Shown here: positions 4,184 through 47,538 of the stretch, one piece after another
Position numbering within the stretch: position 1 is the first letter of the stretch
How the letters are laid out: each line of letters begins with the position of its first letter
Origin: an uncultured Solibacteraceae bacterium
Lineage (GTDB): Bacteria > Acidobacteriota > Vicinamibacteria > Vicinamibacterales > SCN-69-37
DNA: 64,000 nt
NCBI GenBank assembly: GCA_964489685.1
Contig: CAZAZR010000001.1
Coordinates: 732-64,731 of the forward strand
Direction of reading: 5' to 3'
The notes under the pieces: generated by a model
Seen by the model: only the letters and a program-made list of their open reading frames with translations
Databases searched by the model: none
Told to the model about the DNA's origin: nothing
Made by a program: the position numbers and the translations under genes

Positions 4184-4995
4184 AGTAACGTCCTGACGAA
4201 GCTCAAGTGGGCAGTGGCGACCTCAAGAAAATCACGTCCGAACGCCGTTTGCATGACTACCGGTCCCGCGTAACCTGCCTCACCGACTGCGGCAAAAAAT
4301 CGTGGGAAGTCCGCGTCGCCCTGACCCAGCGGAACTGTGGGACCACCCTTCGTGCGGTCCTTGACGTGGATTCCGCACAACAGCGGACCGAGTATTCGGA
4401 TATCAGCCGCGATGTCATATCCGCGGGCTGTTGCGTTTCCGGTATCGAAATAGACTCCCAACGCAGCGTGCTGCGCGTCACTGACGAGGTCCGCATATTC
4501 GGCAGCCGGCAGTTCGGTCTCGAGGCCAAGACGAATGTCGAAAGAAGCGGCCAGGTCCAGTGGCTCTTGAAGGTGTCGCAGTAGTTCCGCCTTTTCGTCG
4601 GCCGTCCGAAGTTCGGCCACCTCCAGCACAGGCAAGAGAACGGTCGTGGCGCCCAGCGCGGCAGCCTGGGTGATCAACTGCTTGAGTACGGCCACGCTTG
4701 CGGCGGACTCGGCTCCGGGGACGCGAAAAAATGGGTGCGCCATGAAGTAGTCGGCGCAAACTGAAGGCACCGTCACACCGGTCGTCGCCACGAGCGCGCG
4801 GATGCGTTCGATACCGCCGTCGATCCAGATCGGGTTGCGATCGAACCCCTCGGCCTCAAACAACCACTCAATGCTGTTGATGCCACACGCGTGTGCGTAT
4901 GCGAATTCCTGTTCCCAGGTGTGCCAGGGGAACGCCTGCACACGGTCCGACGCCGGCGGCGACAGCCGCCCCTGCATGATACCGACAGGATTCAC
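4180..4995 (-). CDS. Sugar phosphate isomerase/epimerase (xylose isomerase-like TIM barrel) family protein
   Basis: Pattern GINSIEWLFE ... RLGLETE ... GVYFDTGN ... GIHVKD is characteristic of the AP-endonuclease-2/xylose-isomerase-like TIM barrel fold. Confidence 0.7.
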   Translation of the reverse strand: MNPVGIMQGRLSPPASDRVQAFPWHTWEQEFAYAHACGINSIEWLFEAEGFDRNPIWIDGGIERIRALVATTGVTVPSVCADYFMAHPFFRVPGAESAASVAVLKQLITQAAALGATTVLLPVLEVAELRTADEKAELLRHLQEPLDLAASFDIRLGLETELPAAEYADLVSDAQHAALGVYFDTGNATARGYDIAADIRILGPLLCGIHVKDRTKGGPTVPLGQGDADFPRFFAAVGEAGYAGPVVMQTAFGRDFLEVATAHLSFVRTLL

Positions 4996-11896: not shown

Positions 11897-13699
11897 TCAC
11901 GAACGCGTCACGAATTGGGCAAAGGCTGAAGAGGTGGCTCGGAGTTCTGCCAGGGCACCGATGGCCGTCACACGGCCTCGGTCGAGCAGTACCACACGGT
12001 CACACGCTTCGAGTGTGGTCAGCCGATGGGCGATGAGCACAACCGTGCGATCACCGCTGAGGGAGCGGATCGCCTCCATGACGGCTTCTTCGGTCATTCC
12101 GTCCAGCGCGCTGGTAGCCTCGTCGAAGACGAGGACAGTGGGCCGCCGATACAGTGCACGGGCGATCCCGATTCGCTGACGCTCACCCCCGCTCAATCGC
12201 ACGCCTCGTTCCCCGACGACCGTGTCATAGCCTCGGGGCAGGTTCTGAATGAACTCGTCAATCTGGGCCAGCCTGGCGGCTTCTTCCACCGCGGCGTGGT
12301 CGATTCGGGCGGGCGGCAGCCCGAAGGCAATGTTTTCTGAGACGCTGACATTCGCGAGAAAAATGTGTTGGGCGACGTAGCCGACCTGGCGTCTCCAAGC
12401 GGACATGGAACCGGGCGAGAGGGGCACGCCATCGACGGTCATCGAACCGGTGTCGGGTTCGAAGAGCCCGAGCAGGATGTCGGCGAGTGTGCTTTTGCCA
12501 GCGCCAGTTCGTCCGATGAGTCCGATGCTTTCTCCTCGCCGGACGTCGAGGGTGATACTGGACAACGCGGGGCGGGAAGCCCCAGGGTACGTGAAGGTCA
12601 CGCCGTTCAGCGAGATTTGCCTGCAAAGAGTGAGGTTGGCAATTTGTTCTACGAGCACGGGCGGCCGGGCTCCGGCCCCGGTCCCGAACCAATCAGCGTG
12701 CAGCGCCGTGAGCGCCGGACGTCCATATCGCACGGAGACTGCGGTCGAGTAGATCTGCTGGAAGCCCGGCAGCAGCCGGTAGCCCACGAAGGAATACAGC
12801 GCCAAAGTCGGAATTGCCGAGGCCGCGCCAGTCTCGCTCTCCCCCAGCAATACCAAGGTCACGATCAGGATGCCGCCGATAGTGATGGTCTCGAGCAGAT
12901 GACGTGGCAGCAACTGCCACAGCCTCTTCTTCACGCTCACTGTCGCTACGCGCTTGGATGCGTCGGCAAAGCGCGAGATGACAGTCTCACGTCGGTCAAG
13001 GACGATCAGCTCCTTGATGCCGCCAAACGCCTCATGGCTGGTTGTCAGGCCATCATGTTCCGCATCACGAGACTCGTCGGCCAGCTGTGCCTGCTGCCGG
13101 CGAGCGAGTCGAAACACCGCGAAATAGGCTCCACCAAGCGTCGTCATTGCGGCGGCTGCGATGGCCGGGCTCTGAGCCGCCAGCAGCGCGATCAGGGCGA
13201 CCACCGCGATCACGCTCGAAACTCCGGACATGAGGGGCAGCAGAATGCCCCCGGTTACGCCTGATACGTCCCTATTGATCGCCCTCATCAGTGACGGCGC
13301 GTCACGCCTGATATGGAATGCGTACGGCGCGAGCAGGAAGCCCCGGAGCAGGCCCGCCGCCAGGCGATGGTGGATCCGTGCTTCGAACCGGTACTGCAGC
13401 CAGGAACTCCAGACCTTCGCGGCGTTTCCGAGCGCCACCATGGCGGCCGAACCGAGCCCAGCCCAGATTACGGTATCTCGCCAGGTGACGGCACCGACCG
13501 TGTCGGCCAACACCTGGAGTGCCGGGTAATTGGTCAAGGCGTCTGAGTTGACCACGAGAGCAATGAACGGCAGGATCGAAGCGACCCCGAGCGCTTGAAG
13601 GCCCGCCGCGATCAATGATGCCAGCAGCACCCATACGAGACGTCGCCGCTCTCTGCCGGACAGCAGATCGAGCAAATGCCGGGCGGCCTCGGTCAACAA
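11897..13699 (-). CDS. ABC exporter, fused permease/ATPase (MsbA-like type I exporter)
   Basis: N-terminal 6-TM region, Walker A GRTGAGKSTL, signature LSGGERQRIGIARAL, and Walker B VLVFDEATSALD. Confidence 0.9.
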   Translation of the reverse strand: MLTEAARHLLDLLSGRERRRLVWVLLASLIAAGLQALGVASILPFIALVVNSDALTNYPALQVLADTVGAVTWRDTVIWAGLGSAAMVALGNAAKVWSSWLQYRFEARIHHRLAAGLLRGFLLAPYAFHIRRDAPSLMRAINRDVSGVTGGILLPLMSGVSSVIAVVALIALLAAQSPAIAAAAMTTLGGAYFAVFRLARRQQAQLADESRDAEHDGLTTSHEAFGGIKELIVLDRRETVISRFADASKRVATVSVKKRLWQLLPRHLLETITIGGILIVTLVLLGESETGAASAIPTLALYSFVGYRLLPGFQQIYSTAVSVRYGRPALTALHADWFGTGAGARPPVLVEQIANLTLCRQISLNGVTFTYPGASRPALSSITLDVRRGESIGLIGRTGAGKSTLADILLGLFEPDTGSMTVDGVPLSPGSMSAWRRQVGYVAQHIFLANVSVSENIAFGLPPARIDHAAVEEAARLAQIDEFIQNLPRGYDTVVGERGVRLSGGERQRIGIARALYRRPTVLVFDEATSALDGMTEEAVMEAIRSLSGDRTVVLIAHRLTTLEACDRVVLLDRGRVTAIGALAELRATSSAFAQFVTRS

Positions 13700-36447: not shown

Positions 36448-36669
36448 ATGAAAACAGGATCTCTTGTTGGCGTGGTGTTGATTGTGCTCGGCCTTTTGGC
36501 GTTGGCGTATCAGGGCTTCTCCTACACGAGCCGCGAGAAGGTTCTTGATATCGGGCCGCTTGAGGCGCACGCCGATACCGAGAAGACGGTGGCGATTCCG
36601 CCCATCGCCGCAGGCGCGGCCGTGCTCGTGGGTCTCGTGCTGGTCGTGGCCGGACGTAAATCAGGCTAG
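36448..36669 (+). CDS. Small two-TM membrane protein (DUF3185-like)
   Basis: MKTGSLVGVVLIVLGLLALAYQGFSYTSREKVLDIGPLEAHADTEKTVAIPPIAAGAAVLVGLVLVVAGRKSG. The pattern G-G/Q-F-S-Y-T...IP...G matches my recollection of DUF3185. Confidence 0.65.
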   Translation: MKTGSLVGVVLIVLGLLALAYQGFSYTSREKVLDIGPLEAHADTEKTVAIPPIAAGAAVLVGLVLVVAGRKSG

Positions 36670-36743
36670 CGGCCGTCCGTAGCGCGGCCGCCGTCCGTAG
36701 CGCGGCCGCCGTCCGTAGCGCGGCCGCCGTCCGTAGCGCGGCC
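36667..36743. repeat. 18-bp tandem repeat (gtccgtagcgcggccgcc), about 4.3 copies
   Basis: Read directly: three perfect units at 36675-36728, a partial unit on each side, beginning at the stop codon of the upstream small gene. Confidence 0.9.
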
Positions 36744-36745
36744 TG

Positions 36746-36781
36746 GGTCTCAAGGCCGCGGCGACCCGCGGCCTTGGGACC
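36746..36781 (+). terminator. GC-rich 16-bp-stem hairpin without a U-tract (possible terminator or RNA stabiliser)
   Basis: ggtctcaaggccgcgg cgac ccgcggccttgggacc, with one G-U position. No T-run follows. Confidence 0.4.
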
Positions 36782-36814
36782 TGGGCCGCACTTCCGCGTG
36801 TACGCCGCTCCCCC

Positions 36815-38917
36815 GTGAGACACTGCCTTCTTGTGCTGATCCCCTCACTCTGGCGCGGCGGCGTCATTGCGGCCGCCATCGTGATCGCAGGCGGTGCGGC
36901 GATCGCGTCGGCGGCCGAGCCTGGGCCGTCGGCCGGGCAGGCGTTGCTTGACGTGCCCTACGTGACTCAGACACCCGAATTGTGCGGCGGCGCGGCGGTC
37001 GCCATGGTGTTGCGTTATTGGGGGCAACGCGAGGTGTTCGCCGAAGACTTCGCCGCACTCGTCGTCCCCAGCGAGCGTGGCATTCCCACGGGTGCCCTTG
37101 TGGCGGCCGTCCGCGACCGCGCATGGCAGGCCGTGGTGTTGCCGGTCACTGATGATACGGGTCACGCGCGCATTCGCACCGAGGTGGCCCAGGGGCGTCC
37201 GCTCATCGCCTTGATCGAAGTCGCGCCCCGCACCTACCACTACGTCGTCATCGTCGGCGCCACCGGTGATCAGGTGGTGTTGCATGACCCCGCACGGGCG
37301 CCGTTTCGGGTGTTGACGTGGGCAGAGTTCGACCGCGCGTGGGCGGTCACGAATCGCTGGAGCATGCTGATCCTGCCGCCAGAGGCCGGTCGTCTGCTTT
37401 CGCCGCCGGTCACGGTCAAGCCCGCCATACCCGGCCCTGAGGGTCCAGTGACTCCCTGTGACGGGCTCGTCGCGCGCGGCGTGACCCTGGCGCGTGGCGG
37501 TGAGGGTGCGGCGGCCGAGCAGGCACTTGTGGCGGCCACCACCATGTGTCCGAAGAATCCCGTCGCATGGCAGGAACTGGCGGGATGGCGATTCTCCGAG
37601 TCACGGTGGGCCGAGAGCGAGCGTTTTGCGAGCATGGCTGTGCGGCTGGCGCCCACTGACGAGTACGCGCGTCGGCTCCTCGGTACCAGCCGGTATCTGC
37701 TTGGGGATGAGGTCGGCGCTCTGACCGCGTGGACGCCTCTTGGTGAGCCGCGTATCGATGCGATCGACGTGCGGGGCGCCGAGCGCACCCGCCACCCCGT
37801 GGTGGTGAGAGCCACAGGGTTGCAGCCACGTCAACTGCTGACGGCCGACGTGTTCGAGCGTGCGCGGCGGAGACTGGACGCACTGCCGGTTGCCTCGCGT
37901 GCGCGCCTTCAATATGAACCGCTCGATGCCGGCCTGGCCAAAGTCGATGCGGTCATTGCGGAGCGGCCAGTGGTGCCGTGGGGATGGCGGCCGCTGGCCA
38001 CCATCGGCATTCGCGCCGCGGTCAGTCGCGAAGTGCGCGTGGACGTGGCGGGCGCACTGGGAGCCGGCGAATTGGCGGCCTTCTCGTGGCGATGGCGATC
38101 GGCGCGGCCGCGTGTCGCCTTCAGTCTGGCGGTGCCGTCCCCCCACTGGATTCCCGGCGTCGTGTCGGTGACGGGCTTGTGGGAGCGCCAGTCGTACCAG
38201 ACGCCCGCGACGACGGCCGCGGCCGCGGAGCCGCTGGTGGAACGGCGCCGTCGTGCCGGCGTGTCGATGGCTGATTGGGCCACGAGCCGGATCCGGTGGC
38301 ATGGCGGCATCGCGATGGATCGCTTTGACTCGCGTGGCCATGTGGCGCTGGATGGCGGCCTTGAGTTCCGCCTGGCCGGTGATCACGTGGCGCTTGGCAT
38401 GCTGGGCGGCGGTTGGGTCCCGCTCTCGGGCGGCGATCCATTTGCGTCAGGGCGTGTGCGAGCCGCGTGGCGATCGACGATGGAGTTGCATGCGCCCTTG
38501 TGGACGGGCAGCGTGGCGCTTGCGAGTGCGGGGCGGTCGGCGCCGCTGGCGCTGTGGGAAGGGGCCGGCGGCGGGCATGCCCGTTCGGGCCTGCTCCGCG
38601 CCCATCGTCTGCTCACAGACGATGTGGTGACGGGGGAGGCGTTTGGGCGCACGTTTGCGTATGGCACCACGGAGTATGCGCGGCCGGTGGGCCGTGTGAT
38701 GGCTGGTGCCATTGCGGTCGCGGGTTTTGTGGATGTGGCTCGGACCTGGCATCGCCTGAGCACGTCGGACCGATCGGCGCTTCTGGTGGACGCGGGCGCG
38801 GGAGTGAGAATCAGCACGGCGGGCCGCACGGAAGTGTTACGGATCGATGTGGCGCAGGGGCTTCGTGGTGGAGGCACCAGGGTGTCGGTCACATGGGGAC
38901 GCGCCTGGCCGTGGTGA
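36815..38917 (+). CDS. Fusion protein: C39-like (PA2778-type) cysteine peptidase - TPR - POTRA - Omp85/surface-antigen beta-barrel
   Basis: N-terminal hydrophobic segment. Peptidase motifs VPYVTQTPELCGGAAVAMVLRYWG (Gln/Cys) and YHYVVIVGATGDQVVLHDP (His/Asp). TPR-like helices (aa ~215-300). POTRA-like IDAIDVRGAERTRHPVVVRATGLQPRQLLT...ARLQYEPLDAGLAKVDAVIAERP. Barrel motifs GFVDVARTW and GVRISTAGRTEVLRIDVAQGL...VTWGRAWPW (aromatic C-terminus). Confidence 0.75.
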   Translation: MRHCLLVLIPSLWRGGVIAAAIVIAGGAAIASAAEPGPSAGQALLDVPYVTQTPELCGGAAVAMVLRYWGQREVFAEDFAALVVPSERGIPTGALVAAVRDRAWQAVVLPVTDDTGHARIRTEVAQGRPLIALIEVAPRTYHYVVIVGATGDQVVLHDPARAPFRVLTWAEFDRAWAVTNRWSMLILPPEAGRLLSPPVTVKPAIPGPEGPVTPCDGLVARGVTLARGGEGAAAEQALVAATTMCPKNPVAWQELAGWRFSESRWAESERFASMAVRLAPTDEYARRLLGTSRYLLGDEVGALTAWTPLGEPRIDAIDVRGAERTRHPVVVRATGLQPRQLLTADVFERARRRLDALPVASRARLQYEPLDAGLAKVDAVIAERPVVPWGWRPLATIGIRAAVSREVRVDVAGALGAGELAAFSWRWRSARPRVAFSLAVPSPHWIPGVVSVTGLWERQSYQTPATTAAAAEPLVERRRRAGVSMADWATSRIRWHGGIAMDRFDSRGHVALDGGLEFRLAGDHVALGMLGGGWVPLSGGDPFASGRVRAAWRSTMELHAPLWTGSVALASAGRSAPLALWEGAGGGHARSGLLRAHRLLTDDVVTGEAFGRTFAYGTTEYARPVGRVMAGAIAVAGFVDVARTWHRLSTSDRSALLVDAGAGVRISTAGRTEVLRIDVAQGLRGGGTRVSVTWGRAWPW

Positions 38918-39019: not shown

Positions 39020-39400
39020 ATGCGTATTCGAACTGTGTCTGCGGCGTTGATTTTTTCGTTGTGTGTGTGGAGTTCACCGGCCTTCGCGCAGCAGCGGCAC
39101 GTGGTCACTCCGGCCGAGATGCGTCAGGCCATTGCGGGTCAGGCGCAGACCGACCAGCAGAACCGCGAGGCCGTTGTCGGCGTGTTGCAGCGCACGCAGG
39201 TGCGTGAAGTGGCCGGCCGTCTTGGCCTGACCGTGGCGAGTGCCCAAACGGCTGTGGCTACGCTCAACAGCGTCGAGCTGGCGCAGGCTGCCGATGCCGC
39301 CCGCCAGGCCGAGGTGCAGTTGTCGGGCGGCAACACCGTGGTGATTTCGTTGACCACGTTGCTGCTGATCATCATCATTGTGATTTTGGTCGCGGACTGA
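39020..39400 (+). CDS. Secreted, C-terminally anchored small protein (PA2779-family-like) with Gly-Gly immediately before the TM anchor
   Basis: SD aaggag sits 5 nt upstream of ATG 39020. Signal peptide MRIRTVSAALIFSLCVWSSPAFA|QQ. C-terminus ...QAEVQLSGGNTVVISLTTLLLIIIIVILVAD. The family assignment is from memory of the PA2778/PA2779 gene pair. Confidence 0.6.
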   Translation: MRIRTVSAALIFSLCVWSSPAFAQQRHVVTPAEMRQAIAGQAQTDQQNREAVVGVLQRTQVREVAGRLGLTVASAQTAVATLNSVELAQAADAARQAEVQLSGGNTVVISLTTLLLIIIIVILVAD

Positions 39401-39678: not shown

Positions 39679-40797
39679 CTACCATCGATGTCGCACGCGG
39701 CGCATCAGCCACGGGACGAGTTGGCGCCTGGCGTCGAGGCCCACAAGGCCCGCCGTGAATCGCAGAAAACCAGTGGTTCCAGGATGGCGGCGCCTCGCTC
39801 GTCGCCACCCTCGCCAGAATAACCACAGGTTCACGGCCGGACCGACCGGGCGCGTCTTCACGCGGCATTCCAGGCGGTCTGCCCACGACCCGGGCGAACG
39901 GCCCAACTCCGTCAGTACCGTCGCAGGCACGGCGACGTCCGGCATGTCGGCAACCAGTCGGAGTGCCACCCGCAACTGGTAGGACAGCTGACGCTGTCGT
40001 GCTTCCGCCACGAGCACGTCCCAGGCCAGCGTGTTGCCGGCCCGGCGGAGCACTTCGACCGCGTCGGCCACCCAGGTCCCGGCGTGTACCCGACTCCACC
40101 GCAAACCGTGGATGCAGACGTGCAGCAGTTGATCGGCAGGGCTCAGGACAAGCCAGCGCGTCTGCTCGTCCTCGACGGACACCGTCCGTCGCCAGACCTC
40201 CGCGTCGACGCCGGGCCAGGTGCATTCCTGCAGCAGGTACTGATGCACGTCGAGGGCGCCGCCGTCTGCGGCCGAGTAGCCGAAACTGTGTCGGGCTGTC
40301 TGAGGAAGCGCGCCCGCGGTGTGAGGACACGTCCACTCCAGCCCGGCGAGGATCGCCCGGGCCGGCGAGATCAACGCCGGTTCGACCAGCGCGTCCACGT
40401 CGCCAAATGGTCGCGCCCCGCGATCAGGGTACACGGCGAGTGCGAGCGCGGCGCCCTTGAGCAGAACGGTGCGAATGCCGGCGCGATGGAGGGCCGTCAG
40501 CGCAGGTCTGGCCCGATCGAGGATGAGCTGGTTGCTGGCCCACGCCTCGCGGCGCGCTCGTCGAAGGACGTCGTCAGTCGCCTCAGGTGCGCCAAGTCTC
40601 GCGAGGTTGCCCGCAACCAGCGGCAGCCAGCGCGCCTCGATGGCGGTGAGGGAGGCGGCCGCGGGGCGACCGGACCATTGTCTCCACGCGCGAACCGCAT
40701 CGTCGCTCTGCGCGAGGGCGGCGGTCATGAGCCAGTCGCGCACGGCATCGGGACGGCCAAGCACATCCCGAACGTCCTCCCTGCGGCGTGATCGCAT
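39679..40797 (-). CDS. Nucleotidyltransferase family protein (PF14907 / NTP_transf_5-like)
   Basis: GIRTVLLKGAALALAVYPDRGARPFGDVDALVEPALISPARAILAGLEW ... HGLRW is the core pattern of the 'uncharacterised nucleotidyltransferase' family, which is often linked to RiPP/lasso tailoring. Confidence 0.75.
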   Translation of the reverse strand: MRSRRREDVRDVLGRPDAVRDWLMTAALAQSDDAVRAWRQWSGRPAAASLTAIEARWLPLVAGNLARLGAPEATDDVLRRARREAWASNQLILDRARPALTALHRAGIRTVLLKGAALALAVYPDRGARPFGDVDALVEPALISPARAILAGLEWTCPHTAGALPQTARHSFGYSAADGGALDVHQYLLQECTWPGVDAEVWRRTVSVEDEQTRWLVLSPADQLLHVCIHGLRWSRVHAGTWVADAVEVLRRAGNTLAWDVLVAEARQRQLSYQLRVALRLVADMPDVAVPATVLTELGRSPGSWADRLECRVKTRPVGPAVNLWLFWRGWRRARRRHPGTTGFLRFTAGLVGLDARRQLVPWLMRRVRHRW

Positions 40798-40815
40798 CGA
40801 GGGGAGAGTATAGGA

Positions 40816-41394
40816 CTATCGGCCGTCGAGCTGTTGAAGCAGCAGGGGCGCGACCGTGTGCGCCTCACCGCGCGCGCTTTCGATTGCGTGCGCGCCAAGG
40901 ACCGCCAGGCGCAGGATCGGCATGGTGGACTCGGGGTCGCGTTGCGCCGCGACGGTGTTGTCCATGCACGCCAGCAGCGCACGGGCCGGCGAGAGCGGGC
41001 GCGGGCGCCACCTGGCACTGGGTTGATACCGCGTGACGACGATCGACCCGAGTGGAAGCGGCACGGTGCCGGCCTGGCCACCGAGCGACTCGACCGGAGT
41101 CAAGACGCCGGGCTCGCCGCCGGTGCCTCGAACCGACAGCGGGACCGGGTACGGGTGGACGTGCCCCGCCTTGTCGAGCACCGCAAACTCGTCGGAGTAG
41201 TACGTCGCGCCCGCACGCACCAACGCGCTGACGAGGGTCGTCTTGCCGGTCATCGATCGACCGGGGATGATCAGCGCCCGGCCGCGCCAGCCGACGACAC
41301 CGGCATGAACGAACAGGCAGTCCCGCGCGCGCAGGGCCGTGAGCAGTTCGGCGTGCCGATGAAACGCGGTGAACAGGGTGCCTCCTGACGACAC
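40816..41394 (-). CDS. HPr kinase-like (HprK-related) kinase, apparently lacking the N-terminal domain
   Basis: LFVHAGVVGWRGRALIIPGRSMTGKTTLVSALVRAGATYYSDEFAVLD (P-loop of the HprK C-terminal domain family). There are only 192 aa. Its GTG start (41392-41394) coincides with the first bases of direct repeat copy 2. Confidence 0.7.
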   Translation of the reverse strand: MSSGGTLFTAFHRHAELLTALRARDCLFVHAGVVGWRGRALIIPGRSMTGKTTLVSALVRAGATYYSDEFAVLDKAGHVHPYPVPLSVRGTGGEPGVLTPVESLGGQAGTVPLPLGSIVVTRYQPSARWRPRPLSPARALLACMDNTVAAQRDPESTMPILRLAVLGAHAIESARGEAHTVAPLLLQQLDGR

Positions 41395-42154: not shown

Positions 42155-42337
42155 ATGAGCGAGAAAGAGACGCCAATCGTATCCAGGTCGACACCAAATA
42201 CCGGTGAGATTTCAGTCGAGGATCTGGAGACGGTCACTGGGGGTGTTGCGCAGTGCAATGCCCCTGGTGGAATCACGGCGAAGGTCCCGAAGCCCGCCAA
42301 CTTCAGCAGTACCATGATGGAAGGCTCCAACATCTAG
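42155..42337 (+). CDS. 60-aa peptide with canonical double-glycine (bacteriocin/pheromone-type) leader
   Basis: MSEKETPIVSRSTPNTGEISVEDLETVTGG|VAQCNAPGGITAKVPKPANFSSTMMEGSNI. The segment ISVEDLETVTGG fits the LSxxELxxIxGG leader consensus at positions -12, -11, -8 (D for E), -7, -4, -2 and -1. A 120-nt hand count (42121-42240) gives 59 G+C, lower than the flanks. No obvious SD. The stop lies 6 nt before the next gene. Confidence 0.5.
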   Translation: MSEKETPIVSRSTPNTGEISVEDLETVTGGVAQCNAPGGITAKVPKPANFSSTMMEGSNI

Positions 42338-42343
42338 TCGGAC

Positions 42344-44632
42344 GTGACTGACAGATTGTCCCGTCTGGCCCGCCTCTTCGTTCTTCTGATTCTGGTGTCT
42401 GGTCTGCCGTTCGCGGCGGCTCAGGCGTTTGCCCAGGCCGTCGCCCCTCAGGCTGCCGGACGGGGGCCAGTCGTGACGGACATCACAACCATCAACCCGG
42501 AAACGTTTGAGGCCATGGCGGCCCGGTTGCCCTCGGGACGCGCGCCAAAAATCGACGGCGTGCTCGACGACGCGGAGTGGCAGATGGCGCCGGTGCAGGG
42601 GCGATTCATCCAGCGCGAGCCCCACTTCGGCTTTGAGTCCAGCGAGCGGACGGAGTTTCGGATCCTGTACGACGATATGAAGCTCTACATCGGCATCTGG
42701 GCCTACGACTCACTCCCCTCGGGCATCGTCGCCAGCGAACTGAAGCGGGACGCAGGATTACGCAAGGGCGACCAGATCAAGATCACGCTGGATACGTTTC
42801 ACGATCACCGGAACGCCTTCTACTTTTCGACCAATCCCCTCGGCGCGCTCAAGGATGCGCACTCGGTTGAAGAGGGCCGGACGATCAACTACGACTGGAA
42901 CGCCGTGTGGGAGAACCGCACCTCCATCAACGAGCACGGCTGGTACGTGGAGATCGCCGTGCCGCTCAGTCAATTGCGCTTCAAGGGCGGACCGGGTGAC
43001 ACCGTCTGGGGGTTGAACGTCTGCCGCATCATCATCAGGAAGCAGGAAGAAGCCTACTGGGTGCCGTTTCCCCGGGAGTGGCAGGCCATCGGCTTTGCCC
43101 GCATGTCTGGCGCCGGTGTGCTCAAGGGGCTTCGCGATCTGGTGCCGCGACGCCGAGTGGAGTTTGTGCCGTTTGCCAGTCCGCACGTCGTGCGCGACTA
43201 CGATGCCGGCACCCCCACGCGCACGACCAAGGACTTCGGTTTCGATCTCAAAGTCGGCCTGACACAGAGCCTCAATGCCGATGTCACCTACAAGACCGAC
43301 TTCGCGCACGTCGAGGCCGATCAGGAGGTGGTGAACCTGTCCCGGTTCAGCCTCTTCTTTCCGGAAAAGCGCCAGTTCTTCACCGAGGGCGCGGGGATAT
43401 TTGACTACAGCCAGAACGCGGGTGCCAATGCCGGCCCAGGCCTGCTGACGTTGTTCTACAGTCGCCGGGTCGGGTTGCAGGATGGTCGGGAGGTGCCGCT
43501 GCTGGCCGGCGCGAGGGTCACCGGCCGCATCGGCCACACCACCCTTGGCGCGATGAACATTGAAACGGACGCAGCCACACTCGGCAGCGGCGCCAGCGCG
43601 CTCCGCATTCCTCGAGCGAATTACTCGGTGGTGCGCGTGAAACGCGACGTGTTTTCGAAATCGTCAATCGGCGGCATTGTCCTCAATCGGACCGGCGGCG
43701 GACGTCCAGACAATCGGAGCGTGGGGGTGGACGGCGTGTTCACGATTGGCACCCATGTGGACTGGATTGTGGCGGCGGCCAAGACCTTTACGCCTGGCGT
43801 GCGCGGCGGCGACGCGGCGCTGGCCACTCGGCTCCGCTTCACACTGGACCAGTTCGACAGCGGACTGACCTACCTCGATGTTGGTGAGCGTTTTAACGCA
43901 GAGATGGGGTTCATTCCCCGAGTCGACATCCGGACGCTGGGCCTGCAGGCCGCCTGGACCCCTCGTCCGAAGTGGACAGGGGTACGGCAACTGCGTTTCA
44001 ACGTGAACACGTCGTACGTGGAAAACCATGCCGGACGAAGGGAATCGCAGTCCACCGGATTCGACACGATCGTGACCGCCCAGGACAGTTCCAATTACCG
44101 GGTCGGCGTTGAGACGCAGTACGACTTCCTGCCGTTTCACTGGTCGACAGGCGGCGGCGTGATTCCCAGTGCGGGGTATTCATGGCAGACGGTCCGGGCG
44201 TCGTACGGCTCGAACCAGTCGCGGCGGGCGTACGGCAGCGTCGGCGTGGACGTGGGCGGGTACTACAGCGGTGACAAGCAGACGTATCGGGCTGATTTCA
44301 GTGTCGTGCCCAGGGACACGCTCCTCATCGAGAACTTCTATTCCCGAAACCGCATCGTCCTGCCCGCCACGGCCCCCTACGTCACCAATGTGCTGAGCAC
44401 GCGTGTCAGTTACTCCTTTTCTCCGAACCTGTTCGTGAAGAGTTTTGCCCAGTACAACGACGCGACCCGGACGGCCAGTCTGAATCTGCTGCTCTGGTAT
44501 ATCTATCGACCTGGCAGCGACTTCTACGTCGTGTACAAGCAGGGTTGGGAAACAGATGTTCCCGGTCCTCAATCACGGCGGGTGCGGGGACGGTCGCTGG
44601 CAGTGAAGATGACGTACTGGTTGTCGCGCTGA
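42344..44632 (+). CDS. Secreted CBM9-like / DUF5916 family protein
   Basis: Signal peptide LFVLLILVSGLPFAAAQAFA. PKIDGVLDDAEWQMAPVQGRFIQREPHFGFESSERTEFRILYDDMKLYIGIWAYD is the N-terminal CBM9-like signature of this family. The long beta-rich C-terminus ends YWLSR. Confidence 0.65.
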   Translation: MTDRLSRLARLFVLLILVSGLPFAAAQAFAQAVAPQAAGRGPVVTDITTINPETFEAMAARLPSGRAPKIDGVLDDAEWQMAPVQGRFIQREPHFGFESSERTEFRILYDDMKLYIGIWAYDSLPSGIVASELKRDAGLRKGDQIKITLDTFHDHRNAFYFSTNPLGALKDAHSVEEGRTINYDWNAVWENRTSINEHGWYVEIAVPLSQLRFKGGPGDTVWGLNVCRIIIRKQEEAYWVPFPREWQAIGFARMSGAGVLKGLRDLVPRRRVEFVPFASPHVVRDYDAGTPTRTTKDFGFDLKVGLTQSLNADVTYKTDFAHVEADQEVVNLSRFSLFFPEKRQFFTEGAGIFDYSQNAGANAGPGLLTLFYSRRVGLQDGREVPLLAGARVTGRIGHTTLGAMNIETDAATLGSGASALRIPRANYSVVRVKRDVFSKSSIGGIVLNRTGGGRPDNRSVGVDGVFTIGTHVDWIVAAAKTFTPGVRGGDAALATRLRFTLDQFDSGLTYLDVGERFNAEMGFIPRVDIRTLGLQAAWTPRPKWTGVRQLRFNVNTSYVENHAGRRESQSTGFDTIVTAQDSSNYRVGVETQYDFLPFHWSTGGGVIPSAGYSWQTVRASYGSNQSRRAYGSVGVDVGGYYSGDKQTYRADFSVVPRDTLLIENFYSRNRIVLPATAPYVTNVLSTRVSYSFSPNLFVKSFAQYNDATRTASLNLLLWYIYRPGSDFYVVYKQGWETDVPGPQSRRVRGRSLAVKMTYWLSR

Positions 44633-44688
44633 GGGCCGCGCTTTCGCGGGTCCATCTGGCTGGTGTTCTAGGAACTCGGGAGGGTTGT

Positions 44689-47538
44689 ATGCGCACACGA
44701 CTGCTGGTGCTACTGGTAGGAGTGCTGACGATCATGGCCACGGCGAAGGTGCCGGGGGAGAGGTCAGCGGTGTCGGTGCTGGAGAACGGGCTGTTGCGGG
44801 CCACGCTGACCGACGGGCGACTCGAGGCGCTTGAGGACCTCACGACGGGCGACTCGGTCAGGTTCACCGACGATCGCTTCAGTGTCACGATCAACGGGCA
44901 GGTCCGTGAGGTGTCGTCCATCGCGCCGACACAGGTCGCGTCGCCGGCGGGCACCGCGAGGTTCGAGTTCGCGCTGCCGACCGCGCGGGTGACGATGACC
45001 TACGAATTGCGGGCGGGCTGGAGGTTTCTCTCGAAGCAGCTCACGATCGAGGCGACCACGCCGGGCGTCTTTCGCGTCAACCACATCAGCGCGCTGGATG
45101 CGACCTTGGCGCCGGCGGCGGTCGATCAACTGGCGCTGACTGACGGCCGGTTCGGCATGGTCTACCGGCTACCCGCGTCGCCAACCGTGTCGCGTGGCAG
45201 ATCGCTGTTGGCGCTCTATCAGAATCCCTACAACGTGCACACAATCGATGGGGCGCACGTGCGCGGGTCGTACGCGCCTGACATGGACTGGAATCCCGCG
45301 AACGGTCCGTTCGAGAGCGACCGGCTCCTGCTGGGGCTCGTCGCGCGCAGCGGCCAAATGATGCCGGCCACATCCGTGCCCGAGTGGGTGCACGTCACTG
45401 ACTACGATCGCTATCTGCGGGAGAACCCCGTCATCGACGAGGCTGAGTCAGACGCGCTCGTCTCCTTCGTCCGTGCGTTTCTGCAGTACCGGCCGGACCG
45501 CAGCATCCGCGTGCACGTGCCGTGGACGGAAAACGACTACCAGATCGACGTCGCGACGCCGGCGGGGTGGACGGAATACCAGCGCATCATCGACATGGCC
45601 GCGCAACTGGGCGTGCGCGACACGTTGTTCGCGCCGTCGAACTCGGCGCTGGCCGCCCTCAAGGACAATCGCGACGCCTGGGGTTGGGAGAATCTGCTGT
45701 TCTTCGGGATGGGCCAGAAGATCCGCACGGGGGAGTGGGTACCAGGTCGCGATCCGGTGCCCGCATCGCTCCGTACGATGCTCGACCGCGGCGCGAAGCG
45801 CGGCCTGAAGTTCGTGGCGTACGCATACCCCACGCTGCCGTTCATGCAGGATCCGTCATGGACGGCGTGGGCGAAGGGCGACCTCGGCGGATACCGCGGC
45901 GTTGATACGGGGCAGCGCGGGTTTCAGGATTGGTGGGTGAACACCCTGGTTGAGTTCGTGAAGGCCACTGGCGCCGGCGGATTCTCTTTCGACCACTGGT
46001 GGATTGCGTACGACGACCCGGCGGCCACCAGCAAGTACGCGCAGTGGTTCGGCGCCCGCCGCATTCTTGAAGAACTCCGCCGCCGCGTGCCAGACATCGT
46101 CATTGACGGCCGACAGCAGTACATGAGCTTTGGGCCCTGGACGTGGCTGGCTGGTTCGTATCCGCATCCGACCTTGACCGACGAGCAGCCGGAGAGTTTC
46201 CTGGCGTTCCCTGATCTGCACACCGATCGCGTGTCGGCGAACCGGCAGCGGTTCGCGGCGTGGAAGTACAGGACAGAACGGTTCACGCCGCCGGAGATCA
46301 TGCCTGGCTACATCACCCACCAGACCGAGCGCACCGACGGCGAGAACGTGATGCGCCGCGATCGCTTTCGACCGCGTGACTGGGACGTGCTGGGCTGGAA
46401 GTATTCCCTGATGTCGTCGGTCGGCACGGCCCCGTTCAATCACACGATCAGTTATATCCCCGCGAGGGATGAGGCCGAGTTCAACGCCTTCAGCGCGGCC
46501 GACAAGGCGTTCTTCAGACGCTGGCTCGACTGGACAGACACCAATGCCGAGGTGCTTCGTCACCTCAAGCCCATCATCGGGCCGCCGATGATGGGACGGG
46601 TCGACGGCACGGCGGCGATCGACCGCGACCATGGCTTCGTGTTCGTCTTTAATCCGAACTACCGATCGATGGACGGCACATTCACGCTGGATCAGTCCAT
46701 CGGGCTCACCGAGGCAGGCCGGGCGTCGGGCTATCTCATCAGGGAGCTGTATCCCGCCGAGGGTCGCCTCATTGGCAAGCCTGGCGCGGGAGTGTGGGCC
46801 TACGGCGATGTCGTGGCGCTTCCAATGCCGGCCACCGACGCGATGGTGTTGGAGATCACGCCAGCCACCATGGTGACCCCGAGGTTGTTCAATGTCAGCG
46901 GACGGGTTGCTGCGTCGAAGGTGGTCACCGTGACCGGCGTGACCGGTGAGCCGGGGAGCTCGACGAGGATGCAGGTTGCGCTGGTGCCCGGCCTTGACGT
47001 GTCGCGGCTGACAGTGAACGGCAGCGAGACGGCGTTCACCCGGAGGAACGACGTGATCGAGGCCACCGTGTCGTTCGCGGGGCAGGCGTTCGGCCGCGCG
47101 GCGAGCGTGTTTCCCTACGACCCGGCGTTCACGGGCGGGACGCTGACCGGCGCCACCACGATCCCTCGCCGGGTGTTCGCGCAACTGGCGGCGCGCAAGG
47201 CGGCGTGGCCTGTGGCCTACACGGCTGATGACCTGCTGGCGCCGTGGCTCGGGTCCGATCGCCTGCTGCTCTTCGTGCAGATCGCCGAGCCTGACGACAG
47301 CCTTGATGTGGCCCTGACGATTGACGGCAAACCGGTGCCGCTGATTCGTGCGTACAACAGCATCTACGGGCACGCACCGAAACGCACGTTTCTGGGGTTC
47401 TATGCCGACGTGTCCACGCTTGCGCCAGACGTGACACATCAGGTGGTGCTGCGTGTGCCCCCGCTTCCGGCGGGACGGTTCCAGGGGCTGTTCTTCGAGA
47501 ACGTCGAACCAGAGCGAACCGCGGTGATTCGGCGATAG
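44689..47538 (+). CDS. Large secreted hypothetical protein, possibly a TIM-barrel glycoside-hydrolase-like enzyme
   Basis: Start trimmed to ATG 44689 (SD gggaggg upstream). Signal-like MRTRLLVLLVGVLTIMATA. The central region GLKFVAYAYPTLPF...GFQDWWVNTLVEFVKATGAGGFSFDHWW is reminiscent of melibiase-like barrels. The function is not established. Confidence 0.55.
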   Translation: MRTRLLVLLVGVLTIMATAKVPGERSAVSVLENGLLRATLTDGRLEALEDLTTGDSVRFTDDRFSVTINGQVREVSSIAPTQVASPAGTARFEFALPTARVTMTYELRAGWRFLSKQLTIEATTPGVFRVNHISALDATLAPAAVDQLALTDGRFGMVYRLPASPTVSRGRSLLALYQNPYNVHTIDGAHVRGSYAPDMDWNPANGPFESDRLLLGLVARSGQMMPATSVPEWVHVTDYDRYLRENPVIDEAESDALVSFVRAFLQYRPDRSIRVHVPWTENDYQIDVATPAGWTEYQRIIDMAAQLGVRDTLFAPSNSALAALKDNRDAWGWENLLFFGMGQKIRTGEWVPGRDPVPASLRTMLDRGAKRGLKFVAYAYPTLPFMQDPSWTAWAKGDLGGYRGVDTGQRGFQDWWVNTLVEFVKATGAGGFSFDHWWIAYDDPAATSKYAQWFGARRILEELRRRVPDIVIDGRQQYMSFGPWTWLAGSYPHPTLTDEQPESFLAFPDLHTDRVSANRQRFAAWKYRTERFTPPEIMPGYITHQTERTDGENVMRRDRFRPRDWDVLGWKYSLMSSVGTAPFNHTISYIPARDEAEFNAFSAADKAFFRRWLDWTDTNAEVLRHLKPIIGPPMMGRVDGTAAIDRDHGFVFVFNPNYRSMDGTFTLDQSIGLTEAGRASGYLIRELYPAEGRLIGKPGAGVWAYGDVVALPMPATDAMVLEITPATMVTPRLFNVSGRVAASKVVTVTGVTGEPGSSTRMQVALVPGLDVSRLTVNGSETAFTRRNDVIEATVSFAGQAFGRAASVFPYDPAFTGGTLTGATTIPRRVFAQLAARKAAWPVAYTADDLLAPWLGSDRLLLFVQIAEPDDSLDVALTIDGKPVPLIRAYNSIYGHAPKRTFLGFYADVSTLAPDVTHQVVLRVPPLPAGRFQGLFFENVEPERTAVIRR

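Follow-up and report, generated by a model that had tools for sequence, protein, structure and literature searches.

A C39-type cysteine peptidase fused to TPR, POTRA and Omp85 barrel domains in Vicinamibacteria, and its conserved partner gene with a candidate double-glycine site

The locus and the authenticity of the fusion

The stretch of DNA analysed here (the window; 64,000 nucleotides) carries an intact gene in which a cysteine peptidase, TPR repeats, a POTRA domain and an outer-membrane barrel are encoded as a single polypeptide, followed on the same strand by a small gene whose product resembles the PA2779 family. The features are as follows.

36448..36669, +: small 73-aa two-helix membrane protein upstream of the fusion (weak DUF202/DUF308 matches; loosely linked)
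36815..38917, +: C39-TPR-POTRA-Omp85 fusion gene, an intact ORF with a GTG start and a stop at 38915-38917, encoding 700 aa
36815..36913, +: predicted Sec signal peptide, aa 1-33, with a putative cleavage site between ASA and A (hydropathy and AxA motif; pLDDT <50)
36944..37384, +: C39/double-glycine-type papain-like cysteine peptidase, aa 44-190, with Q52, C57, H142 and D158 (Pfam, NCBIfam, Foldseek, invariant residues)
37385..37453, +: flexible Pro/Ala/Ser/Thr-rich linker, aa 191-213 (pLDDT <50 at 193-205)
37454..37741, +: three TPR repeats, aa 214-309, in which Cys215 and Cys245 are both invariant (six helices; TPR profile and PDB matches)
37742..37969, +: single POTRA, aa 310-385, ~3 residues from the last TPR helix (topology, Pfam matches in homologs, alignment within BamA/TamA Foldseek matches)
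38030..38914, +: Omp85-type beta-barrel, aa 406-700 (Foldseek to BamA/TamA, PDB profile matches)
39020..39400, +: PA2779-like partner gene, 126 aa, proposed substrate (NCBIfam NF033919, Pfam DUF6627, adjacency to the fusion)
39326..39331, +: codons for Gly103-Gly104 in the partner, a putative site of double-glycine cleavage (motif conservation)

The fusion ORF has no internal stops. HMM searches, two AlphaFold models and Foldseek agree on the order signal peptide, C39 peptidase, Pro/Ala-rich linker, three TPRs, one POTRA and Omp85 barrel (whole-protein AF2 model: pLDDT 83.8, pTM 0.70), which confirms the four-domain order proposed in a preliminary description of this DNA. The same description had raised the possibility that two genes were merged by a sequencing error. 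We checked this, and because the full-length architecture recurs, in homologs of the same length, at 80 loci in species-level Vicinamibacteria genomes (34-82% identity to the fusion), a frameshift or merge artefact of assembly was rejected as its origin. The architecture was also present in 85 of 150 representatives of 50%-identity clusters and in >1475 clusters at 90% identity. The remaining representatives are ~43 contig-edge fragments and ~22 genuine peptidase-less forms, and for this reason the short (400-540 aa) barrel relatives were rejected as proof of split genes. The C39-TPR-POTRA-barrel architecture is undescribed in the searchable literature.

Domains of the fusion protein

The N-terminus resembles a signal peptide, with R2 and R14, a hydrophobic core at 17-30 and then A31-S32-A33 ahead of A34; a hydrophobic N-terminal segment is present in 64/66 fusion homologs. 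The peptidase domain that follows matches the entire Pfam Peptidase_C39_2 model (PF13529; aa 45-160, 1.6e-11, 45.4 bits against a cutoff of 24), as well as Peptidase_C39 (PF03412; 9e-07, 29.2 bits against a cutoff of 22), Peptidase_C70 (4e-08) and, over aa 44-191, the NCBIfam PA2778-family model NF033920 (4e-18). The catalytic residues named in the preliminary description are real and do not vary among 71 genome-derived homologs (Q52 in 69/69, C57 in 69/69, H142 in 70/70 and D158 in 71/71). A structure model of aa 40-312 (pLDDT 88.8) matched the C39-like peptidase 3ERV, the PCAT1 peptidase domain, ComA-PEP (TM 0.84, rmsd 2.2 A) and the double-glycine protease LahT150 (TM 0.79) in Foldseek. By fold and by its catalytic Gln/Cys/His/Asp the protein belongs to the Peptidase C39 clan. 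It is not an ABC exporter fusion of the PCAT type, as Pfam/NCBIfam scans found no ABC domains in it.

The linker between C39 and TPR varies from 18 to 52 aa among homologs and has no conserved column. The six helices of aa 214-309 superpose on consensus 3-TPR proteins with TM 0.8-0.88, and both C215 and C245, which probably form a disulfide, are found in 71/71 homologs. The POTRA appears in the model as a beta-alpha-alpha-beta-beta unit at aa 313-383; the window protein matches Pfam POTRA weakly (E 0.26), and 13 of 44 homologs match (best 3e-4). The fusion therefore has, by topology and by the matches of its homologs, the POTRA of an Omp85 superfamily protein.

The claim of a C-terminal Omp85 barrel was likewise borne out. 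BamA and TamA fill the top 50 Foldseek matches (E 7e-13 to 4e-10; BamA 7e-13, TamA 2e-12), with no FhaC/CdiB (TpsB) among those 50; profile-to-PDB sequence matches again return BamA (1.7e-5) and TamA (8.7e-5), and 11/44 homologs match Pfam Omp85 PF01103 (best 3.8e-5). The barrel is homologous to BamA/TamA and hence of the Omp85 superfamily, with DSSP assigning 15 strands plus short bridges at 600-605 within aa 406-696. It is on these structure and profile comparisons that the assignment rests; the sequence motifs first offered as Omp85 hallmarks are not diagnostic alone. An L6-like loop (aa 573-610) has L-R595-A-H597 at the place of the (V/I)RG(F/Y) motif, so that the Arg is retained and the Gly and aromatic residue are replaced (R595 in 71/71, A596 in 68/71 with Gly in the other 3, H597 in 69/71). 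The last strand ends S-A-G-W/Y/F in 67/71 homologs.

Conservation of the POTRA and L6 loop equals that of the TPR, and the ~22/150 peptidase-less representatives have their own signal peptide followed by (TPR-)POTRA-barrel without C39. For these reasons the barrel is probably more than an anchor.

A conserved partner with an invariant Gly-Gly

One neighbour of the fusion is conserved, and all-vs-all clustering of flanking ORFs revealed no others. This PA2779-like gene is adjacent to and co-oriented with the fusion in 78/85 sources, either downstream or upstream, the order flipping between subclades. Its product matches NCBIfam NF033919 at 8e-8 (32.4 bits, below the cutoff of 40) and Pfam DUF6627 at 2.6e-4, and consists of a signal peptide (AFA|QQ), an ~80-aa domain predicted to be helical and periplasmic, the motif L-S-G-G and a 22-aa hydrophobic C-terminal tail. 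Near two peptidase-less barrel relatives (P0365 and P0410), a C39 domain and a PA2779-like gene are both absent, indicating that the partner tracks the peptidase and not the barrel.

Every complete partner has L-A/S-G-G directly ahead of the C-terminal hydrophobic helix. The Gly-Gly is present in 75/75 complete Vicinamibacteria partners and Leu at -4 in 71/75; G103, G104 and L101 are invariant in our partner alignment (A2). Only 2-5 residues separate the site from the predicted surface of the inner membrane. The residues at -8, -11 and -15 are small or hydrophobic and share one helical face, and the -7 position is acidic rather than hydrophobic, which differs from the canonical LSxxELxxIxGG leader. 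The preliminary description had suggested the product of this gene as a substrate, and it proves a good candidate on the grounds of conserved linkage and of the invariant Gly-Gly with its transmembrane tail. The latter combination, which that description had not noticed, is the strongest mechanistic clue at the locus.

Relationship to the proteobacterial PA2778/PA2779 cassette

A tblastn search with the partner against plasmids gave no match, and the top 120 matches of the Vicinamibacteria partner profile were saturated by its own clade; the proteobacterial cassettes were reached via a plasmid tblastn match. The cassette of Azoarcus sp. KH32C pAZKH (AZKH_RS25055/25060) is an example. As in the fusion, a homologous C39 domain is followed by TPRs (30% identity to the fusion over aa 46-256, E 2e-13), and next to it in the same orientation lies a gene for a small protein whose signal peptide and helical domain are followed by A-G-G and a hydrophobic tail at the C-terminus. 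Among 120 proteobacterial PA2779 proteins, 117 have P-A-G-G at the equivalent site, with the A-G-G followed by a Thr-rich stretch and hydrophobic tail, and the other 3 have G-A; both GG and GA are tolerated by double-glycine peptidases (PMC5557850). The motif is thus conserved in two phyla, as L-A/S-G-G in Vicinamibacteria and P-A-G-G in Proteobacteria. Pseudomonas aeruginosa and many Betaproteobacteria possess the PA2778/PA2779 cassette.

The proteobacterial peptidase differs from the fusion in being a stand-alone C39+TPR lipoprotein of ~250-320 aa: the three such homologs that were checked (Azoarcus, Dechloromonas and Ramlibacter) all have a lipobox (LAAC, LAAC and LAGC, respectively), whereas the 700-aa fusion has an AxA signal peptide without lipobox and carries an additional 390 residues of POTRA and Omp85 barrel. 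Since it scores 65.7 bits against a curated cutoff of 150 and aligns to model positions 2-149 of 255 only, the fusion is a related outlier of the PA2778 family (NF033920) and not a member as curated, even though it shares with the family adjacency to a PA2779-family/DUF6627 gene. The link to PA2778-type stand-alone C39+TPR proteins made at the outset was correct. No dedicated barrel was found within 5 kb of three proteobacterial cassettes (L085, L088 and L089), and a fourth proteobacterial locus (L090) has a PA2779-like gene without an adjacent C39 gene. We found no biochemical evidence of cleavage for any PA2778/PA2779 family member in the literature, and both cassettes are uncharacterised.

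Orientation and proposed function

The peptidase was originally suggested to face the periplasm, and several observations make this likely. The TPR module joins the POTRA via ~3 residues, and POTRA domains are periplasmic (PMC11116518). The stand-alone homologs that were checked carry lipoboxes. The topology of the partner, with a signal peptide and a C-terminal stop-transfer helix, would place its Gly-Gly in the periplasm. The invariant Cys215/Cys245 pair, alongside a single catalytic Cys, points the same way, as do the precedents of periplasmic PlpD and periplasmic FapD.

The locus is best explained as the form that the two-gene PA2778/PA2779 cassette takes in Vicinamibacteria. We propose, with moderate confidence, that an outer-membrane-anchored, periplasm-facing C39 peptidase clips the partner at Gly-Gly and so frees it from its membrane anchor. 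The fusion protein would be exported by Sec and its C-terminal POTRA and barrel would insert in the outer membrane, with the 3-TPR module directly beneath the POTRA and the active C39 domain hanging in the periplasm from a flexible linker of ~25 residues. The co-encoded PA2779-like protein, its presumed dedicated substrate, would also be exported by Sec and be held in the inner membrane by its C-terminal hydrophobic helix. The TPRs would probably dock its helical ectodomain, and the peptidase would cut after L-A/S-G-G just outside the helix, releasing the ~80-residue ectodomain and leaving a hydrophobic stub of 22-27 residues. The Omp85 module would replace the lipid anchor of the proteobacterial enzyme and may add a further outer-membrane function. 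With the Gly-Gly so near the inner membrane, a peptidase tethered to the outer membrane must reach across the periplasm, which the linker, TPR and POTRA might permit. Two observations count against this explanation: the sequence ahead of the Gly-Gly is not a canonical leader and is acidic at -7, and the proteobacterial locus L090 has its PA2779-like gene without a C39 gene beside it.

Alternative readings

The preliminary description went further and proposed a one-polypeptide device that cleaves and exports, in which the fused POTRA/Omp85 would translocate or display the ectodomain clipped by the periplasmic C39, as an analogue of FapD plus FapF or of TpsB. The POTRA and L6 loop are constrained to a degree comparable to the TPR, substrate binding by POTRA domains is known from other Omp85 proteins (PMC4104836), FapD/FapF couples a periplasmic C39 peptidase to outer-membrane secretion (PMC5557850) and the fusion is stable throughout one bacterial class, all of which suits such a device. 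However, the proteobacterial cassettes do without a dedicated barrel, closed BamA/TamA barrels lead the structural matches, with TpsB proteins absent from the top 50, the fusion has a single POTRA and lacks an H1 plug helix, and the partner lacks a TPS domain and is predicted to be helical, unlike an unfolded beta-helix cargo. Bernstein and colleagues also argue against secretion of folded domains by folded Omp85 barrels (PMC11116518). We consider this reading unlikely: a cleavage candidate and a likely periplasm-facing peptidase survive from it, but we found no evidence for export, and the proteobacterial homologs are barrel-less with a lipoprotein anchor.

It seems similarly doubtful that the barrel has an Omp85 function of its own, such as assembling or inserting envelope proteins, with C39-TPR as a regulatory or quality-control add-on acting on its clients and the partner as an adaptor. 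The peptidase-less relatives (~22/150), which have a signal peptide and (TPR-)POTRA-barrel with no C39 and no partner gene, would suit such a machine. BamD binds BamA POTRA5, and the TPR beside the POTRA of the fusion recalls this. Heinz and Lithgow, moreover, proposed periplasmic quality control by protease-fused Omp85s (PMC4104836). On the other hand, the trio of C39, TPR and partner is self-contained in Proteobacteria without any Omp85, no conserved client genes lie nearby, and TPR remnants are present in the peptidase-less relatives, which suggests secondary loss of C39 and not an ancestral stand-alone machine.

A further reading starts from the C-terminal sorting systems, namely sortase/LPXTG, exosortase/PEP-CTERM, rhombosortase/GlyGly-CTERM and PorU/T9SS CTD. 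The partner shares with their substrates a short signature motif, an extreme C-terminal hydrophobic helix and a very short tail, and a cysteine-type processing enzyme is encoded next to it, as in those systems. A-G-G plus hydrophobic helix could then be a new C-terminal sorting signal and the outer-membrane-located C39 a sortase-like enzyme that forms a Gly thioester and passes the ectodomain to an envelope acceptor (peptidoglycan, lipid or an outer-membrane protein) or to its own POTRA/Omp85 for surface display, instead of only hydrolysing the partner. In contrast to sortase, exosortase and rhomboid, the enzyme here is a soluble-domain C39 and not membrane-embedded, the partner has no basic cluster after the helix, and each enzyme has a single substrate instead of many. 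Transpeptidation is purely speculative, and we regard this reading as improbable. If true, it would mean a single-polypeptide "sortase-plus-translocon" in Vicinamibacteria and a previously unrecognised protein-sorting pathway in Pseudomonas and relatives.

We think it very improbable that the protein is a type Vd-like autotransporter in which the POTRA-barrel carries C39, alone or together with the TPRs, to the surface as a passenger that acts on external substrates. The order N-terminal enzyme, single POTRA and 16-strand Omp85 barrel is that of PlpD, the original type Vd archetype, and the 18-52-residue Pro-rich linker could in principle thread the barrel. Yet the enzyme domain of PlpD itself was shown to remain periplasmic (PMC11116518), which undermines the type Vd model as such; in addition, the TPRs abut a periplasmic POTRA, the Gly-Gly of the partner is periplasmic by topology, the stand-alone homologs are lipoproteins and the barrel resembles closed BamA/TamA.

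Least probable is a toxin/immunity pair with C39 as a harmful protease and the PA2779-like protein as its immunity protein or inhibitor, not its substrate: such pairs typically show tight two-gene linkage, a TraDIS study listed PA2778 among putative enzymes upstream of seemingly protective genes with the H1-T6SS active (bioRxiv 10.1101/733030; a lead without follow-up) and a papain-like toxin/immunity pair (9L5U) is among the weaker Foldseek matches (rank 26), but the fusion has a Sec signal (a lipobox in the stand-alone homologs) and an outer-membrane anchor, Pfam/NCBIfam scans revealed no PAAR, VgrG, Rhs or CdiA delivery domain, the gene is single-copy and, instead of being polymorphic, is conserved throughout the class at identities as low as 34%, and the most conserved feature of the partner, Gly-Gly before a transmembrane helix, resembles a cleavage or sorting site and not an inhibitor surface.

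Comparison with known systems

The architecture of the fusion has a parallel in the patatin-like Omp85 proteins PlpD/FplA (formerly "type Vd secretion"), single polypeptides in which an N-terminal enzyme precedes one POTRA and an Omp85 barrel. For these proteins as for the fusion, a periplasmic location of the enzyme is most likely, and the Omp85 scaffold serves a non-canonical purpose (PMC11116518). The PlpD/FplA enzyme is a patatin phospholipase that acts on lipids, whereas the fusion has a cysteine peptidase plus TPR and a proposed dedicated protein substrate; Pfam matched no patatin domain in it. Patatin-, metallophosphatase- and WD40-Omp85 are known enzyme-fused forms (PMC4104836). The fusion falls outside the ten subfamilies of Heinz and Lithgow 2014 (BamA, BamA-like, TamA, Lipo, noNterm, Metallo, WD40, PlpD, FhaC and Hmw1B), and the text of that paper mentions neither peptidases, C39, TPR nor Acidobacteria (PMC4104836). 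TpsB proteins (type Vb) combine an N-terminal plug helix with two POTRAs and have a TpsA partner bearing a TPS domain, in contrast to the one POTRA and the 126-aa helical partner without TPS described here.

In the Pseudomonas Fap system, FapD is a Sec-exported, catalytically active periplasmic C39 peptidase needed for secretion via the outer-membrane barrel FapF (PMC5557850). As in the fusion, a C39-like peptidase is paired with an outer-membrane beta-barrel, and the suspected targets are GG/GA motifs of proteins from the same operon (PMC5557850). FapD and FapF are, however, not joined in one protein, and FapF, a trimeric autotransporter-like barrel of 12 strands, is not an Omp85; the cargo consists of amyloid subunits and the operon content is unrelated to that of the fusion locus. 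Given FapD/FapF (PMC5557850), the enzyme-fused Omp85 proteins (PMC4104836) and periplasmic PlpD (PMC11116518), the initial remark that no characterised example is known was overstated.

The PCAT/AMS exporters (PCAT1, ComA and LahT) have the same peptidase fold and catalytic Gln/Cys/His/Asp as the fusion, and a cut after Gly-Gly with an amphipathic helix ahead of it is expected in both. Their peptidase domains are cytoplasmic, fused to ABC transporters and remove N-terminal leaders; the enzyme of the fusion would be extracytoplasmic, is fused to an outer-membrane barrel and has its proposed site near the C-terminus of the substrate, before a membrane anchor. If true, this would clearly exemplify extracytoplasmic action of a double-glycine peptidase at a C-terminal site, for which FapD has given the only hint so far. 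The predicted cleavage after the invariant Gly-Gly beside the membrane anchor also provides the PA2778/PA2779 cassette with its first substrate hypothesis that can be tested cheaply. The fusion is a widespread addition to the architectures of the Omp85 superfamily and supports re-use of the Omp85 scaffold to hold periplasmic enzymes at the outer membrane, here in Vicinamibacteria, abundant soil bacteria with hardly any characterised envelope biology.

Other neighbouring genes

Three further genes of the window were rejected as conserved partners because they are absent from all 84 other loci: an HprK-like kinase (40816..41394), an NTP_transf_5 gene (39679..40797) and a gene for a 60-aa GG-leader peptide (42155..42337), the last missing even from an 82%-identical relative. 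The 60-aa peptide, put forward earlier as a second candidate for cleavage by the fusion, has a textbook double-glycine leader without a Sec signal and so would not get to the periplasm unaided. Among 20 large ORFs scanned across the window there was no C39-ABC exporter (PCAT) for it, the one ABC exporter (11897..13699) being of the plain type, and Pfam scans of ORFs between 41484 and 42337 found no PqqD/RRE-like protein. A methyltransferase gene on the opposite strand at 21/81 loci was rejected as subclade synteny. The 73-aa membrane protein has a homolog in 15/85 sources, all close relatives, and is upstream of the fusion in two of the loci (L001 and L002); it is possibly a loosely linked accessory.

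Domain architecture of the fusion protein

The ORF encoding the fusion (36815..38917, +) opens with GTG and runs uninterrupted for 700 aa. Its N-terminus resembles a Sec signal: basic residues come first, residues 17-30 form a hydrophobic core, and A-S-A|A spans 31-34. A comparable N-terminal hydrophobic segment was present in 64 of the 66 fusion homologs with enough upstream sequence. In Pfam, Peptidase_C39_2 aligned in full at aa 45-160 (1.6e-11; 45.4 bits, gathering score 24) and overlapped matches to Peptidase_C39 and C70. The NCBIfam model that scored best was the one for PA2778-family cysteine peptidases (4e-18, aa 44-191), at a score under its curated cutoff. An AlphaFold2 model with 44 homologs as input was confident (pLDDT 83.8, pTM 0.70) and comprised the following elements.

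aa 45-190: alpha/beta domain
aa 193-205: disordered stretch
aa 214-309: six helices
aa 313-383: beta-alpha-alpha-beta-beta unit
aa 391-404: helix
aa 406-696: 15 DSSP strands plus short bridges

The top 50 Foldseek matches of the whole model were all Omp85 proteins (BamA and TamA, several phyla; E 7e-13 to 4e-10). A second model, of aa 40-312 (pLDDT 88.8), matched the C39-like peptidase 3ERV and the PCAT1 peptidase domain in Foldseek; it compared with ComA-PEP at TM 0.84 and rmsd 2.2 A and with the double-glycine protease LahT150 at TM 0.79, and its helical part matched consensus 3-TPR proteins. Since the Pfam and NCBIfam matches, the AlphaFold2 models and Foldseek agree, the C39, TPR, POTRA and Omp85 barrel domains named in the preliminary description are real and follow one another in the order proposed there. 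The sequence strings it cited as signs of an Omp85 protein are not diagnostic; structure and profile comparisons supply the evidence for the barrel.

Distribution and conservation of the fusion

A sequence search with the window protein matched more than 1475 clusters at 90% identity, the best 120 of which were all 630-800 aa long; the named ones among these 120 were each a 'C39 family peptidase' from Vicinamibacterales or Acidobacteriota. Scanning one genome per species gave 80 loci with full-length fusion matches (34-82% identity), nearly all in Vicinamibacterales/Vicinamibacteria MAGs, with a few bins labelled Gemmatimonadales. A conserved family with 80 full-length loci rules out the concern, raised when the ORF was first described, that two genes had been merged by a frameshift or similar artefact.

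The catalytic residues proposed from the window alone (Q52, C57, H142 and D158) were invariant across 71 fusion proteins, as were Cys215 and Cys245 in the first TPR. Most mature fusion proteins have exactly three cysteines, a count that, with the invariance of Cys215 and Cys245, would fit a free catalytic thiol together with one disulfide, as expected in an oxidising compartment. The loop equivalent to Omp85 L6 carries L-R-A-H, with Arg595 in 71/71, which we read as a variant of the canonical Omp85 (V/I)RG(F/Y). Conservation of each domain, expressed as the share of alignment columns at or above 95%, was as follows.

Near-invariant alignment columns in the fusion proteins
C39: 23%
L6-like loop: 16%
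TPR: 12%
POTRA: 11%
C-terminal barrel strands: 11%
N-terminal barrel strands: 3%
Linker and signal peptide: 0%

A two-gene cassette

The gene at 39020..39400 (+) encodes the partner, a protein with weak matches to the NCBIfam 'PA2779 family protein' model (8e-8) and Pfam DUF6627. We searched for conserved neighbours among six-frame ORFs of 84 fetched loci and the window (85 sources). A partner homolog adjoined the fusion gene in 78 of the 85, and 77 of 79 matches shared its strand; close relatives have the homolog directly downstream of the fusion gene, more distant ones directly upstream. No other neighbour was broadly conserved among the flanking ORFs of the relative loci: an HprK-related kinase-like gene, an NTP_transf_5 gene and the gene for a 60-aa peptide (42155..42337) occurred in the window and in none of the 84 other loci, being missing even beside the relative whose fusion is 82% identical. 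Fusion and partner thus make up a conserved two-gene cassette. The 60-aa peptide, which had been suggested as a substrate of the fusion, drops out as a conserved partner, being unique to the window among the 85 loci.

All 75 unique sequences of complete partners carry L-(A/S)-G-G; behind it come 2-5 polar residues, then a stretch rich in Thr and finally a hydrophobic run up to the C-terminus, the tail beyond GG amounting to 22-27 residues. Upstream of GG, Leu occupies -4 in 71/75 and Ala -3 in 61/75, and positions -8, -11, -14 and -15 hold small or hydrophobic residues. The Sec and stop-transfer rules are an established basis for the topology of such a protein. From these rules we predict that the partner, with its AxA|Q signal peptide, should be exported and anchored in the inner membrane by its C-terminal helix, and that its GG should lie just outside that membrane on the periplasmic side.

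One MAG (MFD05442.bin.1.381) holds two paralogous cassettes (L013 and L040, whose fusions are 54% and 45% identical to the window protein), with the partner downstream of the fusion in one and upstream in the other. These opposite positions suggest two ancient cassette subtypes, each with its cognate partner.

The proteobacterial PA2778/PA2779 pair

We located the curated PA2778/PA2779 pair on the Azoarcus sp. KH32C plasmid pAZKH, where the PA2779 protein ends in '...RIDSMPAGG-NLTTTEWILIVLIAILVAIAL'. Among 120 proteobacterial PA2779 proteins, 117 had P-A-G-G plus a 21-residue tail and the remaining 3 had G-A, which double-glycine peptidases accept for GG (PMC5557850). The simplest reading of a GG motif kept in two phyla beside a C39 peptidase gene is that this peptidase cleaves there. 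As an exception to the pairing, a proteobacterial-type PA2779/DUF6627 gene (L090:5001-5369) had no adjacent C39 peptidase gene; upstream of it, on the opposite strand, lies a 447-aa gene with no Pfam match.

The PA2778 homologs of Azoarcus, Dechloromonas and Ramlibacter are C39+TPR proteins of 266-316 aa without POTRA or barrel, and no Omp85 gene was found within 5 kb of them. Each of the three begins with a lipoprotein signal (...LSLAAC|Q, ...LALAAC|A, ...LCLAGC|A), from which the proteobacterial module is predicted to be a lipid-tethered extracytoplasmic enzyme. In the Vicinamibacteria fusion the POTRA-barrel stands where that tether would be. The called starts of two of these stand-alone genes, L085:5058-5804 (Azoarcus WP_231874598.1, annotated to begin beyond the catalytic Cys) and L088:5488-6288 (Dechloromonas), are too far downstream, and longer ORFs restore the lipoprotein signal peptide at both. 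Immediately upstream of the Dechloromonas PA2779/PA2778 pair is a patatin-family gene (L088:3726-4883; Patatin + DUF3734), a parallel to PlpD that is probably coincidence.

Orientation of the peptidase and role of the barrel

In the AlphaFold2 model the junction between the last TPR helix and POTRA is only ~3 residues. POTRA domains have so far been found solely in the periplasm, and the enzyme domain of PlpD is experimentally periplasmic, not secreted (PMC11116518). Together with the predicted periplasmic position of the partner GG, these points argue that the fusion's peptidase faces the periplasm. C39 is the module furthest from the barrel, and its linker to the TPR is Ala/Pro/Ser/Thr-rich, unconserved and 18-52 residues long; we conjecture that it might let C39 reach towards the inner membrane. 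Going beyond architecture, conservation and linkage, we infer a mechanism in which an outer-membrane-embedded, periplasm-facing double-glycine peptidase would cut the partner after Gly-Gly and so free it from its membrane anchor, a reading to which we give about even chances.

A search with POTRA+barrel alone against 1.84 billion representatives gave 311 matches at E ≤ 1e-30 and 744 at E ≤ 1e-3. The best 150 comprised 85 full fusions, ~43 contig-edge fragments and ~22 relatives without C39, the last with their own signal peptide directly ahead of a TPR remnant or POTRA. In three peptidase-less barrel relatives a signal peptide is followed by TPR, POTRA and barrel (521 aa) or directly by POTRA and barrel (409 aa), with no PA2779-like gene close by.

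L086:2101-3666: P0365, peptidase-less barrel relative
L087:2338-3567: P0410, peptidase-less barrel relative, adjoined by an ECF sigma/anti-sigma pair
P0361: peptidase-less barrel relative

The loci of P0365 and P0410 lacked, in every frame, both a C39 domain and a PA2779-like gene. The partner thus goes with the peptidase rather than with the barrel, as would be expected of a substrate and its enzyme. Since the barrel lineage can persist alone, it likely has a function of its own, and the barrel probably does more than anchor the enzyme. An Omp85 function independent of the peptidase, which would then be an add-on, would suit these relatives; we think it less likely than the main reading. Export of the released partner domain through the barrel, as the preliminary description had it, is possible, but our results lend it no support and we think it improbable. 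A toxin/immunity pair, for all the linkage of peptidase and partner, and a surface-displayed 'autotransporter' peptidase, set against the periplasmic POTRA and PlpD precedents, are both unlikely.

Comparison with described systems

The survey of Heinz & Lithgow (PMC4104836) divides the Omp85/TpsB proteins into ten subfamilies, among them forms fused to patatin, metallophosphatase or WD40 domains, and names no peptidase-C39 or TPR fusion and no Acidobacteria. Full-text literature searches returned no paper on the C39-TPR-POTRA-Omp85 architecture or on PA2778/PA2779 function; PA2779 is termed a hypothetical protein, and PA2778 appears only as a candidate from a T6SS TraDIS screen (bioRxiv 10.1101/733030). 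The closest functional precedent for the fusion, a periplasmic C39 peptidase with an outer-membrane barrel, is FapD with FapF; FapD is Sec-exported and its catalytic Cys is essential for secretion (PMC5557850). The fusion falls below the curated cutoffs for the PA2778 family and belongs to none of PCAT, TpsB and PlpD. The description that suits it best is a new architectural variant merging two known kinds.

Other features near the fusion gene

36448..36669 (+): gene just ahead of the fusion gene, for a 73-aa protein that has two hydrophobic helices
36672..36743: perfect tandem repeat of four 18-bp units (GCCGTCCGTAGCGCGGCC), in the gap that separates the 73-aa gene from the fusion gene
36744..36795: longer GC-rich inverted repeat (AAGGCCGCGG...CCGCGGCCTT)
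39679..41394 (-): NTP_transf_5 nucleotidyltransferase (2e-36), then a short 192-aa HprK-related kinase A-like protein (3.5e-13, partial model match)
42155..42337 (+): 60-aa ORF with a double-glycine leader and a 30-aa core (VAQCNAPGGITAKVPKPANFSSTMMEGSNI)
42344..44632 (+): 762-aa DUF5916/CBM9-like protein with signal peptide
44545..47538 (+): 997-aa ORF with no Pfam match at all

The leader of the 60-aa ORF is near-canonical (I-S-V-E-D-L-E-T-V-T-G-G, hydrophobic at -4, -7 and -12), and the ORF weakly matches the NCBIfam 'CTB family bacteriocin' model; no C39-ABC exporter for it was found in the window. Pairs of NTP_transf_5 and HprK-related kinase genes are typical of peptide-modification cassettes. 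The pair here is divergent from the leader-peptide gene and absent from all related loci, so it may be an inserted RiPP-like islet; no PqqD/RRE-like ORF was detected between the HprK-like and leader-peptide genes. The 762-aa protein is probably an outer-membrane protein, and in the related locus L001, too, DUF5916 genes occur at a distance of a few kb from the fusion. Homologs of the 73-aa protein occurred in 15 of the 85 sources, only in close relatives, at the same position in L001 and L002. Every 18-bp repeat unit holds a GGCCGC...GCGGCC palindrome, and elsewhere in the window the unit recurred only as one 3-mismatch match at 4601. The repeats at 36672..36795 may serve as a terminator or REP-like element, or else as a regulatory array.
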